A stretch of DNA of 36,820 nt from a phage, in the sequence record PZ239915.1; one strand, given 5' to 3'. A program made the position numbers and the translations under genes. The notes below the pieces were generated by a model. It ran no database searches. It was not told the DNA's origin and was given only the letters and a program-made list of their open reading frames with translations. Shown one piece after another: positions 23,802-29,025 of this stretch. Every line of letters begins with the position of its first letter. The first letter of the stretch is position 1.

Positions 23802-24231
23802 AAATATTGGGAGCGTTGCTACGTTTGAGAAATCTATTGCTGACTGGATTGACAGGGCCGATAAGGGATTTGAGATTGTGGTGGCTAATACGGTCACTAA
23901 AACAGCTAACGCAATTGTTGACCTTTCGCCCGTCGACACTGGTAGGTTCAAGGCTAACTGGCAAATCACCGCAAACTCACCAGCCCAACAGTCTCTTAAT
24001 GAGTACGACCAGACTGGTGGCCAGACAAAAACATATCTCGCCAGACAGGCCAGGGCAGTTGCCAATTCAAAGGCCACTAGTGTTATTTATATCACTAACC
24101 GACTTGATTACGCTGCTGGGCTTGAGTATGGCGCATCAAATCAGGCTCCAGCCGGTGTTTTAGGCGTGGTGCAAGCAAGGTTGGGTAGGTATTTCCAGGA
24201 AGCAGTAGAGGAGGCGCGTCGTGCAATATGA
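23794..24231 (+). CDS. putative neck / tail completion protein
   Basis: Track ORF trimmed to the ATG at 23794 overlapping the upstream gene end. Confidence 0.45.
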   Translation: MARNIGSVATFEKSIADWIDRADKGFEIVVANTVTKTANAIVDLSPVDTGRFKANWQITANSPAQQSLNEYDQTGGQTKTYLARQARAVANSKATSVIYITNRLDYAAGLEYGASNQAPAGVLGVVQARLGRYFQEAVEEARRAI

Positions 24232-24622
24232 ATTATCATTAGCGGCAAGGAAATTCGTCGACGATTTGTTGGTAAATGAATTTCCCGTCAGGTATCCAGT
24301 TGCGTGGGAGAATACTGCATTCACTCCTCCAGCAGATGGGTCAATCTGGCTTAAGTACGACTACACAGAAGTTGATACTGTAACCTACGGATTAAGCAGG
24401 AAGTGCAAATACTACGTAGGCATGGTGCAGGTTTCTGTTTTCTTCAGCCCTGGCATTGGAATTGATAAGCCGAGACGGATTGCTAATCAATTGGCAGAAT
24501 CTATCGTTGATGGTACAATGCTTGACAGCGGGACCATTTATGAGTCTGGAGTTGTTAACCCGGTTATCAAATCCAAGTCTGGGTGGTTTATCCCGGTTCG
24601 TTTTTATGTTCGTCTAGACTAA
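24221..24622 (+). CDS. putative tail terminator (gpU-like)
   Basis: GTG start 8 nt after GAGGAGG; 133 aa immediately upstream of the major tail protein. Confidence 0.45.
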   Translation: MQYELSLAARKFVDDLLVNEFPVRYPVAWENTAFTPPADGSIWLKYDYTEVDTVTYGLSRKCKYYVGMVQVSVFFSPGIGIDKPRRIANQLAESIVDGTMLDSGTIYESGVVNPVIKSKSGWFIPVRFYVRLD

Positions 24623-24637
24623 CAAAAGGAAAAATAC

Positions 24638-25294
24638 ATGGCTCATCTCAGCAATGGCACGCAGGTCTTCGTAGAAGGCTCTCGCGGTGACGCAATTGAC
24701 GTAACTGCAATTTCTAACGCAGTTACCCCTGTTTTAACTGTATCTGACGCATCTGGTTTGGTTGTTGGTGATTACCTGCTTTTCACCTCATCGGCCTCTA
24801 CACTTCTGGCCGACAAGCAAGTACGAATTACTGCAATTTCTGGCACTTCGGTAACAGTTGAAGGTATTGATACCTCCAGCACTACCAAGTTCCCAGCTGG
24901 TTTAACTGGTGAAGTTGTTAAGATCACTTCATGGTTCGAAGTTCCTTGTGTTCAGGATGTATCTACTGATGGTGGCGAACAGCAATTCGTTAACTTCCAG
25001 TGTCTTTCTGATGGCCGTGAACAGCAGATTCCTACTTATAAGTCTGCGGTAACGAACACCTTCACCTTCGCTCACGAGTACACCAACCCGGTCTATCCGG
25101 TTCTGCGTAACTATGATGAGTCAGGACAGGTTGTTGCGATTCGTCTGTTTGTTCCTCGCGCCAGTGAAATGCGCTTGCAGTCCGGCACTATCGCTTTCAA
25201 CGACACGCCAACTATCGGCGTAAACGAAATCGAAACGGTATCCATCGCTGTATCCATTCGTGGTCGGCTGTCCTCAGTGGCAGCGGAAGTTTAA
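24638..25294 (+). CDS. major tail (tube) protein
   Basis: 218-aa ORF followed by a strong terminator and directly upstream of the G/GT chaperone pair. Confidence 0.6.
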   Translation: MAHLSNGTQVFVEGSRGDAIDVTAISNAVTPVLTVSDASGLVVGDYLLFTSSASTLLADKQVRITAISGTSVTVEGIDTSSTTKFPAGLTGEVVKITSWFEVPCVQDVSTDGGEQQFVNFQCLSDGREQQIPTYKSAVTNTFTFAHEYTNPVYPVLRNYDESGQVVAIRLFVPRASEMRLQSGTIAFNDTPTIGVNEIETVSIAVSIRGRLSSVAAEV

Positions 25295-25300
25295 AACACA

Positions 25301-25323
25301 AACCCTCTTCGGAGGGTTTTTTA
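25301..25323 (+). terminator. rho-independent terminator
   Basis: CCCTC/GAGGG stem, TTCG loop, 6-T run after the major tail gene. Confidence 0.65.
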
Positions 25324-25376
25324 TTGCTACCAACCTGCTATAATGCAATCTCACAAACAATAAGAGGATTAAAAAA

Positions 25377-25691
25377 ATGGCAAAGTTCAAACTTTCACTG
25401 GCGGCACTTCCTGACTTTAAGTTGCCTGTAAAATTCAAGTTGGCTAATGACCAGGATGTAGAGGTTATCTTTACAGTCAAGCACAAGAAAACATCTGAGT
25501 TGCAGGAATTACTTAGCAAGGAAGATTTAAGCACCAAAGAACTTATTATGGCAATTGCCTCTGATTGGGATTTGGAAGAGGAATACAACGAAGATAACGT
25601 TAATGAGTTCGCCGACCTGTTCCCAGCCTCAACAGTTGCATTAACTACCGCTTATATGCAAGCACTTGCTGGTCAGCGAGTAAAAAACTAA
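25377..25691 (+). CDS. tail assembly chaperone (gpG-like)
   Basis: 104-aa acidic protein before the tape measure; ends at the slippery heptamer A_AAA_AAC followed by TAA. Confidence 0.7.
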   Translation: MAKFKLSLAALPDFKLPVKFKLANDQDVEVIFTVKHKKTSELQELLSKEDLSTKELIMAIASDWDLEEEYNEDNVNEFADLFPASTVALTTAYMQALAGQRVKN

Positions 25692-26011
25692 AACGAGCGG
25701 TGTATCTACAGTACCAGTCAGAGCCAACTGATGCAGAACTGGAAGCTATTGGGATGCGCCGCTCTGATTACGAAGATGAAGAGCCTGAGGCTTTGCACTT
25801 CGACGATAACATGATGAAGGCGTGGGACATTTACTGTTCAATGGCGACGCAGTGGAGAGTTGGAGCTAATGGGGCTACAGGACTTGATTACAACGTGCTA
25901 AATTTCCTCTTTAGAGTGTATAATGTCTCAGAAGAAGAATTGGTGCTCAGCGATTTACGCATCCTTGAAGCTAAGGCTCTAGAGATGATGGATAACCTGA
26001 GAAAAAAATAA
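25377..26011 (+). CDS. tail assembly chaperone fusion (gpGT-like) via programmed -1 frameshift
   Basis: Slippery site AAAAAAC at 25682-25688 in the zero frame of the G-like ORF; the -1 frame is open from there to the stop at 26009-26011 (track ORF 25700..26011). Confidence 0.55.
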
Positions 26012-26030
26012 CCCGCTTCGGCGGGTTTTC
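26011..26030 (+). terminator. rho-independent terminator
   Basis: CCCGC/GCGGG stem, TTCG loop, TTTT. Confidence 0.55.
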
Positions 26031-26046
26031 TATTATGGAGGCTTAG

Positions 26047-29025
26047 ATGGCAACAAATGAATTAGCCGGAATCACACTAGCCGTAGACGTATCGCAAGTA
26101 GACAGGGGAACGCAATCCCTGCAAAAGTTCAGACAGGCAAACCAGCAAGCCGCTTCCGGCATTAGTGAGTTCGTCAATGCAGAGCAGGTCGCAAAGACCC
26201 AGGCAAAAGACACGGCTCGCGCACTGGCTGAACAGCAAGCATCTTTAGCTAAATTGCAAACGGCCATTGACCCAACAGCGGCAAAGTTCCGTAAGCTGCA
26301 AGAGGCTGCTGTAGGTCTGGATAAGGCATTCGCGGCTGGCGTAGTTCCTGATGAGGAGTTTTTCCGCTTAGGTGAGGCCCTTGAAACGCAGAACGCAAAG
26401 CTCGCTCGTTCACGTGCGGCGCTAACTGAAGAAGGTAGAGCAGCTGCTCAGGCTGCAAAAGATAAAGCAAAGGCAAAGGCTGAAGCTGACAGGTTCATTG
26501 CTTCACTTGAGCGCCAGGCTCAAGCGGCAACATTGACGCGCGAGGAGTACTTAAAGTTACAGGCTGCTCAGCTTGGCGTAAGTTCCCAGGCAGCACCAAT
26601 CATTGACAGAATCGCCGACGCATCACAGAAGGCAAACACCCAATTAATTGCTCAGAGCAAGGCTTTTCAACGCTCTGGCTTAAGCGCAGGTCAATACAAG
26701 GCTGCAATCTCTCAATTGCCAGCGCAGATTACAGATATTGGAACATCACTTGCTGGCGGCATTCCGATTTGGCTTATTGCAATTCAGCAAGGTGGGCAGA
26801 TCAAGGATGCATTTGGCGGTATTGGCAACACCTTTAGATTCGCGCTTGCAGCCTTAAATCCATTCAATGTTGCTGTTGGGGTTTTGGGTGGCGCGCTTGT
26901 TGCTCTTGGTGTTGGTGCAGCTCAGGCTGAAAGTGAATTCAGAGCGCTAAACTCTGCTATCGCATTCTCCAACAACTCAACAATTACATCAATATCGCAA
27001 ATTAGAGAGTTGGTTAGTTCTGTATCTGATGCTACTGGAGCAACGAGAGGACTTGTAACTAGTATTGCAACAAGCCTTATTGAGCAAGGGAACCTTACGC
27101 TGACGCAGATTGACAAGATTACCAAATCAACCGCCAGATGGGCGCAGCTTACCGGAAAAGATGCAAAGGAAATTACTGGTTACTACAACCAGATTGCAAG
27201 CGACCCAATACAGGGATTGGTTGATTTGGATAAGCGCTTTAACTTCCTCACGCAGGGGCAGTTGACGACAATCGAAAACCTGAGAAAGACGAAGGGAGAG
27301 GTCGAGGCCGTTACCGCCGCAATTGACATTTTCAGCAAGTCTCAGGAAGCCAACCTTAACGACATAGCAGAGCAGTTAACTCCACTTGAGTTAGCCTGGA
27401 ATGATTTTAGAAAGTACATCTCTGATATCTGGGATGCAATTAGTCGTAGAACGGTCGGGGCGCTGAACCTATTTGTTGACGTAATCGCCGGAACGATTGA
27501 ACAGATCAGGGTATTAATTAACCAGGGTGATGTTCTGATTGGTGAATTCGTAATTAGCGCAACTCAGGCATTGCAGAACATTCCTGGTCTTGATGGCGTT
27601 GGTGATGATGTTATCAAGGGGCAGCAGAAGATTATCGATGCCGCCAAGAAGCAAAACCTTGAGCTAGAGAAGTCTATCAAGGAGCGCGATGCCAGAATCA
27701 GAGAGGGAGAGCTTGGTTACGTTACTCGCAGAGAAAATCAGAATACCAATGAGCAGTCAGGTACTGATGAGGAATTTGCAAAAAGGAAGAAGGCGCTTCA
27801 GGATGAGCTTGATGCGATCAAGAAGAACAGGAAAGAAGAAAATAGTAGGGTTAAGGAGCAAAGAGATTTAACAATTGGTTATGAATCTGGCGTTCTGGCG
27901 CTTCAGGCTCAACTCAAGGTGCTTCAGGAAAACAGGGATATTGGCGCAGTAATAAGCAATGAGCGCAAGCAGTATCTTCAGGAGGAGGCCAAATTCAGGA
28001 TTCTTGAGCAGAGACAACTTGATGGCTCAATTACCAAAGAGCAAGCAAGACTTCTCATTGAAAAGGATAAAGTTCTTGAGTTAGCCAGACAGAAGGCTGA
28101 GCTAGGTGATCAGATTGTTTTGCAGGAGCGAGCTAATAAGTTAGCTGAAGATAACCGCAAGAAGATTCTTCAGATTAACAATGAGGCAAGTAACATTGAT
28201 TTGGGTGCTGGTTTATCATCTCGCGAGCAGCAGAGAGCCAAAGAGATTCAGGCTCTTCAATCCAATCAGGTTAATGCTGGTGGTTCTGTTGATGATGTTG
28301 ATTTTCAGCAATTACTGGAAGCAAGAAAGGAATACTACAAGCAGGAGGATAATCTTAGGTCAGACTGGCAATCCGGTGTAACATCCACTCTCGCCGACTT
28401 GACAGAGAAGTACACTGACTACAACCAGATTGCTAAGGACTTAACTGTTGCGGCATTCGACGGGATCACAGATCAAATCACTAACCTTGTAACCACTGGT
28501 GAGACCAATTTTAGGGAGTTCACATCAAACATCCTCAAAATGATTGCGAAGATTGCAACTCAGTTACTTTTGGTTAAGGCTATTGAATCTACAATCAAGA
28601 GCTTTGGTGGTGGGGGAGGTGATGCGTTTGGCTCTTTTGCGTCTGCTATAGGTTTCGCTGGTGGCGGATACACTGGTGACGGCGGGAAGTATCAGCCAGC
28701 AGGAACGGTACACCGCGGTGAGTTTGTATTCACAAAAGAAGCAACAAGCCGAATTGGTGTTAAGAACCTATACGCACTAATGAAGGGTTACGCAAACGGC
28801 GGCGCTGTAGGCGGTCCATCTGGTTATGCTAATGGCGGATTGGTTTCTGGTGGAACTGATGTTAATGTTAGCGGCATCACTGTTAACGTGAACTCTGGTG
28901 TTGGAAGTGATCCAGAACAAGCTAAGGCACTGCAAAATGGAGTTAAGGCAATCGTAGCTGAAGAGATTGCTCAGTCCTTCCAGCAGGGTGGCAGGGCGTA
29001 TGCTTACCTTCGCGGATTCAACTAA
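26047..29025 (+). CDS. tail tape measure protein
   Basis: 992 aa, long predicted coiled-coil regions, Gly-rich C-terminal segment; located between the chaperone and minor tail genes. Confidence 0.85.
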   Translation: MATNELAGITLAVDVSQVDRGTQSLQKFRQANQQAASGISEFVNAEQVAKTQAKDTARALAEQQASLAKLQTAIDPTAAKFRKLQEAAVGLDKAFAAGVVPDEEFFRLGEALETQNAKLARSRAALTEEGRAAAQAAKDKAKAKAEADRFIASLERQAQAATLTREEYLKLQAAQLGVSSQAAPIIDRIADASQKANTQLIAQSKAFQRSGLSAGQYKAAISQLPAQITDIGTSLAGGIPIWLIAIQQGGQIKDAFGGIGNTFRFALAALNPFNVAVGVLGGALVALGVGAAQAESEFRALNSAIAFSNNSTITSISQIRELVSSVSDATGATRGLVTSIATSLIEQGNLTLTQIDKITKSTARWAQLTGKDAKEITGYYNQIASDPIQGLVDLDKRFNFLTQGQLTTIENLRKTKGEVEAVTAAIDIFSKSQEANLNDIAEQLTPLELAWNDFRKYISDIWDAISRRTVGALNLFVDVIAGTIEQIRVLINQGDVLIGEFVISATQALQNIPGLDGVGDDVIKGQQKIIDAAKKQNLELEKSIKERDARIREGELGYVTRRENQNTNEQSGTDEEFAKRKKALQDELDAIKKNRKEENSRVKEQRDLTIGYESGVLALQAQLKVLQENRDIGAVISNERKQYLQEEAKFRILEQRQLDGSITKEQARLLIEKDKVLELARQKAELGDQIVLQERANKLAEDNRKKILQINNEASNIDLGAGLSSREQQRAKEIQALQSNQVNAGGSVDDVDFQQLLEARKEYYKQEDNLRSDWQSGVTSTLADLTEKYTDYNQIAKDLTVAAFDGITDQITNLVTTGETNFREFTSNILKMIAKIATQLLLVKAIESTIKSFGGGGGDAFGSFASAIGFAGGGYTGDGGKYQPAGTVHRGEFVFTKEATSRIGVKNLYALMKGYANGGAVGGPSGYANGGLVSGGTDVNVSGITVNVNSGVGSDPEQAKALQNGVKAIVAEEIAQSFQQGGRAYAYLRGFN

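Follow-up and report, generated by a model that had tools for sequence, protein, structure and literature searches.

One of the closest described systems is the G/GT pair of phage lambda, whose frameshift was reportedly described by Levin, Hendrix and Casjens in 1993 and by Xu, Hendrix and Duda in 2004 and 2013. According to a review, lambda makes GT and G at a ratio of about 1:30, and this ratio matters for assembly. Genome notes on the T1-like phages Stevie and Skenny describe tape measure chaperones with a conserved translational frameshift. The heptamer A_AAA_AAC, which is the site of IS1, is a proven but weak shifter in E. coli. In E. coli reporters, frameshifting on it was 0.16% when no stimulator was present, 0.19% next to the IS911 stimulators, and 0.74% next to the IS3 pseudoknot, and thus stayed below 1% even with a strong pseudoknot; A_AAA_AAG under the same conditions gave 0.29%, 4.3%, and 39% (Sharma et al. 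2014, Table S3). The related heptamers G_GGA_AAC and T_TTA_AAC are more familiar in eukaryotic RNA viruses than in bacteria, in which AAC is considered to shift poorly in the A site.

The window analyzed here is the whole stretch of phage DNA, 36,820 nt in length. The phage is a Drexlerviridae (Braunvirinae) coliphage, and its region from 24600 to 26300 is 99.8% identical to vB_EcoD_SU57 (SU57) and about 90% identical to many other phages. The gene order is tail terminator, tube, G/T, and tape measure. The tail terminator gene (24221 to 24622) lies upstream of the gene for the major tail (tube) protein (24638 to 25294, plus strand), which matches PF08813 Phage_tail_3 with an E value of 1e-66 and phrog_584. 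The tape measure gene (26047 to 29025, plus strand) encodes a 992-aa protein with matches to PF06791 TMP_2, PF09718 Tape_meas_lam_C, and phrog_24. The G/T pair sits between the tube and tape measure genes.

The first ORF of the pair (25377 to 25691, plus strand) encodes a G-type tail assembly chaperone of 104 aa. By direct reading, a Shine-Dalgarno (SD)-like AAGAGGA lies on the same strand at 25362 to 25368, 8 nt 5' of the G start codon, and SU57 has an annotated ribosome binding site at the equivalent place. The G product belongs to PF08748 Phage_TAC_4 (E value of 5.5e-33; 114.3 bits against a gathering threshold of 21.1), and its residues 1 to 104 align with profile positions 1 to 124 of 124, that is, with the full domain. 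It also matches phrog_569 and phrog_17368. The T segment (25688 to 26011, plus strand) lies in the -1 frame, has 107 codons and a stop, and forms the C-terminal half of the fusion. It matches PF08809 DUF1799 over profile positions 1 to 80 of 80 (E value of 1.7e-15; 57.5 bits against a cut-off of 26). Of the 213 positions of phrog_17368, 1 to 107 correspond to the G part and 109 to 210 to the T part. The profile covers both halves and therefore models fusion-length proteins.

Scanning Pfam at E <= 0.1 gave Phage_TAC_4, DUF1799, and sub-threshold unrelated matches only, and neither of the lambda G and T families. No PDB sequence relative of the fusion was found at E <= 1, and the chaperone pair had no NCBIfam match. 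The pair therefore resembles lambda G/T as an analogue in function, and any homology between them is distant at most.

Positions 25680 to 25691 read GTA AAA AAC TAA. The slippery heptamer A_AAA_AAC occupies 25682 to 25688 of the plus strand in the zero frame, with its first A at codon position 3, and the G stop codon TAA (25689 to 25691, plus strand, direct reading) adjoins it. Beginning at 25607, the -1 frame contains no stop before the one at 26009 to 26011, and it shares the final 82 nt of G. The heptamer is the sole in-frame X_XXY_YYZ within this 82-nt overlap of the two frames. The first codon after a -1 slip is CTA (Leu) at 25688 to 25690, which uses the C of AAC and the TA of the stop TAA. 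The resulting fusion, join(25377..25688, 25688..26011), is 211 aa long. The original prediction had given the position and zero-frame phase of the heptamer, the -1 stop, and the GTA AAA AAC TAA end of G with the slip site adjoining the stop. All of these were correct on direct reading, and the fusion of about 210 aa that it expected beside the 104-aa G product comes to 211 aa. A +1 frameshift was also considered and rejected; around the stop, that frame has just 15 open codons.

We suggest, at a probability of roughly 0.88, that a programmed -1 ribosomal frameshift on A_AAA_AAC yields the 211-aa GT fusion. In this scenario, most ribosomes translating 25377 to 25691 would stop at TAA and release the 104-aa G-type chaperone, and a small fraction would slip one base back on the heptamer. 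The tRNA-Lys would re-pair perfectly, from AAA to AAA, and the tRNA-Asn would re-pair from AAC to AAA with a wobble mismatch. The slipped ribosomes would then read CUA and stay in the -1 frame to 26011, making a GT protein in which the DUF1799 half would be the T domain. If lambda is a guide, the G part may bind the product of the next gene, the tape measure protein, and the T part may recruit the product of the preceding gene, the tail tube protein. A low GT:G ratio would be set by the recoding signal, whose parts would be the heptamer, with its intrinsic weakness in E. coli, together with a strong hairpin and possibly a slow-to-decode adjoining stop. Poor shifting on the heptamer in E. coli counts against the frameshift, yet it also agrees with the low GT:G ratio of lambda. 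The base of the hairpin would stand at the mRNA entrance of the ribosome when the slippery codons fill the P and A sites. An additional pause could arise at the stop that follows AAC, once AAC has reached the P site and UAA the A site.

The bare heptamer is not enriched. AAAAAAC occurs 7 times on the two strands of the window, against 10.5 +/- 3.1 expected from shuffles. This lack of over-representation would suit a coincidence, with the heptamer arising by chance where G ends and no fusion being made from the ORF downstream. What is above chance is the position of the heptamer, its gene context, and its conservation, not the string. Therefore, our case is built on architecture, context, and conservation. 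Across both strands, 4 of 196 XXXYYYZ strings combine a long zero-frame ORF with a long -1 extension (60 or more open codons upstream and a -1 extension of 60 or more codons that continues for 40 or more past the zero-frame stop). Among these 4, only the string at 25682 adjoins a stop codon. Elsewhere in the window, a G_GGT_TTT at 601 to 607 is in frame near the end of an ORF of 139 aa (221 to 640) and has a 74-codon -1 extension into the next ORF (669 to 911). Because the latter has its own ATG, this string is probably due to chance.

Homologous loci were collected from IMG/VR, searched first with the fusion protein and next with an aligned set of ten diverse G proteins, and from GTDB genomes and annotated phage records, for a total of 84 distinct junctions. 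In 71 of them, X_XXA_AAC (X = A, G, or T) is followed directly by a stop codon. A_AAA_AAC precedes TAA in 60 of the 84, TGA in 5, and TAG in 1; G_GGA_AAC precedes TGA in 2, and T_TTA_AAC precedes TAA or TGA in 2. The tally of 71 takes in one more junction with A_AAA_AAC and TAA beyond these classes. TAA also follows A_AAA_GTT in 6 junctions, A_AAG_GTC in 5, and A_AAG_CCC in 1, and 2 junctions are broken ORFs and unusable. Besides the junctions tabulated, a Ralstonia phage has G_GGA_AAC followed by TGA. Three IMG/VR loci (L032, L084, and L121) have a broken G-homologous ORF of 81, 122, and 57 codons, respectively, with no terminal heptamer. The breaks are probably assembly errors or indels, and these loci were left out of the counts.

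The arrangement of X_XXA_AAC and a stop is found in Drexlerviridae, Dhillonvirus, and Ralstonia phages. It is also present in prophage-like loci of Pseudomonas and Lysobacter genomes and of Neisseria, Rhodanobacter, and Pseudoxanthomonas metagenome-assembled genomes (MAGs). The distant loci with G_GGA_AAC or T_TTA_AAC directly followed by TGA or TAA (L130, L134 to L136, and L034) come from a betaproteobacterial MAG, two Pseudomonas genomes, a Pseudoxanthomonas MAG, and a Ralstonia phage. The base before the Lys codon is constantly A, though the codon to which it belongs varies (GTA, GCA, GAA, or ACA). In the Dhillonvirus KarlBarth, a TGA in the -1 frame lies just upstream, and the -1 frame opens exactly at the heptamer. 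Therefore, the shift is possible there nowhere but at the heptamer.

Within the clade of the window, GTAAAAAACTAA is invariant in 14 distinct sequences that diverge by up to about 10% over G and T, whereas the neighboring synonymous sites at 25679 and at 25693, 25694, and 25696 vary in the same sequences. The position, phase, and adjoining stop are conserved in the 71 junctions, down to relatives only 21 to 33% identical to the G protein of the window. With a single PHROG profile spanning the G and T halves as well, coincidence is, on these sequence comparisons, effectively refuted. We take the comparison as strong evidence that T is expressed by recoding at the heptamer.

Some lineages lack the heptamer. 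They are the Sf12-like phages (L013 to L016, L018, and L056 to L060), Webervirus (L004 and L097 to L102), and L126. The Sf12-like junction reads GCA AAG GTC TAA, that of Webervirus, such as KLPN1, reads GCA AAA GTT TAA, and one MAG has GCA AAG CCC TAA. In the Sf12-like phages, Webervirus, and L126, the stop is kept at the same position, and only A_AAR, positioned one codon before the last sense codon, is left for slippage of the tRNA-Lys. These lineages without a canonical heptamer keep the stop; thus, the full heptamer appears not to be indispensable, and only A_AAR is universal within the Drexlerviridae.

The run of six A at 25682 to 25687 raises the alternative of transcriptional slippage, in which RNA polymerase would add an extra A and produce an mRNA subpopulation with G and T in frame. 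Homopolymer slippage has been documented in IS elements and some phage genes, according to a review. However, members with G_GGA_AAC, with T_TTA_AAC (only three A), or with A_AAG_GTC share the architecture, which fits re-pairing of tRNAs and not a need for a homopolymer. The conserved codon phasing and a hairpin at a 6-nt spacing are likewise features of ribosomal frameshifting. Runs on which the polymerase slips efficiently are longer than six A. We consider this alternative highly improbable.

The T peptide (LKRAVYL... or LIEAA...) is conserved from the first codon after the slip site, also where a start codon is absent. In most relatives, the first ATG, GTG, or TTG in the T frame lies 50 to 221 nt downstream: at +122 in T1 and atuna, +125 in the Ralstonia phage, +149 in KLPN1, and +221 in KarlBarth. 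Most relatives have no near start in the T frame, and several annotators were therefore forced to truncated T ORFs. Only the clade of the window has a GTG at +11 (25700 to 25702, plus strand), and this codon has been annotated elsewhere as an independent T start. G and T could then be separate proteins, with T made through its own initiation or through termination-reinitiation at GTG 25700. This codon is in the T frame 9 nt past the G stop and is preceded by a weak GAG (AGAGGG in sister strains). SU57 and many other records list separate G and T CDS, and the annotators of phage OzMSK added an "independent RBS" remark. However, the GTG is confined to the clade, and even relatives whose nearest start is far away have a conserved T sequence beginning at the slip site. 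Both the GTG and its weak SD would be buried in the 13-bp basal stem of the predicted hairpin, in whose 5' arm the GTG lies, and GAG and GTG are only 2 nt apart. The lambda T domain, according to a review, acts only within the GT fusion. We judge separate expression of G and T to be very unlikely, and from the distribution of starts in the relatives, initiation at the GTG cannot be the conserved mode of T expression. Reinitiation at GTG 25700 could add some free T beside GT in this clade.

A stop codon (TAA, TGA, or TAG) is found at exactly the position of the G stop in 82 of the 84 distinct junctions, and the other two are the broken ORFs. This family-wide retention agrees with the suggestion of the original prediction that the adjoining stop may promote pausing. 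However, the stop is retained even in lineages without AAC, and by sequence reading its loss would lengthen G by about 38 codons. Ancestry and purifying selection therefore explain the conservation of the stop equally well. We put a functional role of the adjoining stop in slippage, as judged from this conservation, at about one in three.

In bacteria, AAC shifts poorly in the A site, yet its pairing with a stop is conserved. For this reason, the pairing of X_XXA_AAC with a stop could mark a termination-coupled -1 version of the "shifty stop" mechanism (Weiss et al. 1987, as described in PMC3082878), in which the P-site tRNA-Asn would slip while the stop codon awaits a release factor. If so, release-factor kinetics, and not the heptamer alone, would set the G:GT ratio. 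We regard this mechanism as rather unlikely.

For the frameshift on A_AAA_AAC, the original prediction had advised a search for a downstream stimulatory structure. This search turned up a candidate stimulator, a predicted 70-nt RNA hairpin at 25695 to 25764 on the plus strand, beginning 6 nt 3' of the heptamer. Its basal stem has 13 bp, in which GAGCGGUGUAUCU pairs with GGGAUGCGCCGCUC. The predicted minimum free energy is -32 kcal/mol (z = -2.96 against dinucleotide shuffles), and the same fold is predicted in a 201-nt context. In a scan of all 12,248 plus-strand windows of 76 nt, the one at the site had -30.9 kcal/mol, compared with a mean of -13.96 (standard deviation, 4.51), and only 0.02% of the windows were as stable. 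The 6-nt spacer is canonical and within the 5- to 9-nt criterion of a dnaX-type signal.

Substitutions within the clade fall mostly in the apical loop of the hairpin and in a bulge, and 25736 to 25776 is invariant. The main stems contain two clade changes: A-U to G-U at 25696, which is compatible with pairing, and a change at 25705 in a single sequence (L044), which disrupts a pair. The 14 clade sequences vary too little to give usable covariation support. Among the synonymous (third) positions, 3 of 16 at hairpin-paired sites were variable, compared with 37 of 90 in the rest of T, a trend only (P = 0.10).

The 70-nt hairpin itself is not shared by other clades, many of which have a different, shorter hairpin at the same position. 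In T1 and Tlsvirus, a different 30-nt hairpin of about -15.5 kcal/mol lies 7 nt past the heptamer, in the top 0.3 to 1% of their own loci. Across 31 lineage representatives, the 76 nt past the heptamer were in the top 10% of their own locus in 17. The median percentile over these 31 lineages, which are not fully independent, was 0.08 (Kolmogorov-Smirnov test against uniform, P = 5e-9). The Sf12-like phages have no such hairpin, and the fold there is at about the locus median, though the T peptide is nearly identical (LKRAVYLQYQREPTDAELEAIGMRRSDYEDEEPE versus LKRAVYLQYQSEPTDAELEAIGMRRSDYEDEEPE). L013, L017, L038, and L036 have no notable downstream structure. Taken as a structure prediction, the hairpin probably has a functional role, and we hold this view with only modest confidence.

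Other candidate stimulators gave no signal. We found no dnaX-like SD element: the best anti-SD duplex in 25655 to 25681 had -3.1 kcal/mol, at the 58th percentile of the background. A pseudoknot between the apical loop and the next 76 nt gave a duplex of -10.7 kcal/mol, no better than shuffles (mean, -11.6). A search of Rfam with 25300 to 26100 at E <= 1 returned no relevant match, only terminator-like fragments of small RNA models.

The G/T unit is bracketed by two GC-rich tetraloop hairpins with a TTCG loop. The first, terminator-like hairpin (AAACCCTCTTCGGAGGGTTT and then a T-run) follows the tube gene directly, within 25300 to 25345. It is followed by a TATAAT-like box, GCTATAATGC, at 25338 to 25347, and SU57 has an annotated BPROM promoter at the equivalent place. 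Because of this hairpin and box, transcription of G/T and the tape measure gene may be attenuated in comparison with that of the tube gene. The second terminator-like hairpin (AACCCGCTTCGGCGGGTT and then TTCTATT) lies at 26010 to 26027, where it overlaps the T stop and precedes the tape measure gene, which starts at 26047. In most sister phages (OzMSK, 2725-N35, ZL19, BEK3, and others), an extra ORF of 249 to 387 nt, annotated as a "hypothetical protein," lies between the tube gene and G. The window (25295 to 25376) and SU57 are without this ORF, and the difference shows as a two-piece alignment.

Annotation of the pair is uneven among the records. SU57, the nearest one, has separate CDS, with G as a "tail assembly chaperone" and T as a "hypothetical protein," and SU57 and many sister genomes list G and T as unrelated hypothetical or mislabeled proteins; several truncate the T ORF. 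The families phrog_569, phrog_17368, and phrog_680 label the chaperones "tail length tape measure protein." This mislabel has spread to many GenBank records, which show three consecutive CDS with that name. The annotation of the window is corrected by giving G/T as a joined CDS, join(25377..25688, 25688..26011).

In OzMSK, whose DNA is 91.5% identical and which has an identical GTAAAAAACTAA with the same heptamer and stop, XLM52745.1 is a two-piece joined CDS annotated as [quoted passage not shown] with reference to T1 gp40/gp39. KLPN1 YP_009195376.1 is a joined CDS as well. Given the joined CDS in OzMSK and the papers on T1-like phages, the frameshift is already known for this phage group. 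The claim of the original prediction, a G/GT-type -1 frameshift upstream of the tape measure gene, is thus supported by domains, gene order, conservation, and the joined CDS of a relative. It adds little biology, because a G/GT frameshift is a textbook trait of long-tailed phages and has been noted for T1-like phages. The interest for recoding lies in the family-wide pairing of X_XXA_AAC with a stop, with three first bases and all three stop codons, and in 3' RNA structures that are constant in position and variable in sequence, among them the strong predicted 70-nt hairpin here. The family would be a convenient natural series for studying the tuning of a weak bacterial heptamer to a frameshift level that is low and constant.

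Among the known systems, the frameshifted "tape measure chaperone" annotated in T1-like phages belongs to the same gene family at the same position; unlike the phage of the window, KLPN1 has A_AAA_GTT and not the full heptamer. IS1 insA-insB' uses the same A_AAA_AAC, which is proven at low efficiency in E. coli. However, IS1 has no established stimulator, whereas a hairpin is predicted here at 6 nt and a stop adjoins the heptamer, and the product here is a phage assembly factor and not a transposase. E. coli dnaX (A_AAA_AAG) likewise has an A-rich heptamer read by tRNA-Lys and a stem-loop about 6 nt downstream. Unlike dnaX, the site here ends in C and not G, which is far less shifty in E. coli (0.19% versus 4.3% with the IS911 stimulators), and it is without an upstream SD-like element. 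As at "shifty stop" sites, the stop directly follows a codon whose tRNA is able to re-pair in a different frame. However, the classic examples are mostly +1 (CCC_UGA and prfB CUU_UGA), whereas the shift here would be -1, with a role for the stop suggested by conservation only.

The lambda G/GT pair has much in common with this locus. Both have two ORFs between the tube and tape measure genes, with the second in the -1 frame, and the first ORF has an X_XXY_YYZ near its 3' end; as in lambda, a fusion of low abundance would be expected here. The heptamer is A_AAA_AAC here and G_GGA_AAG in lambda. Unlike lambda, the stop adjoins the heptamer here, a strong 3' hairpin is predicted, and the proteins belong to the Pfam families Phage_TAC_4 and DUF1799. 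Judged by gene order, frame relation, and slip site, the site belongs to the G/GT class of Xu et al. 2004, and the combination of a weak heptamer with a strong predicted hairpin fits a need for a small, fixed amount of GT.
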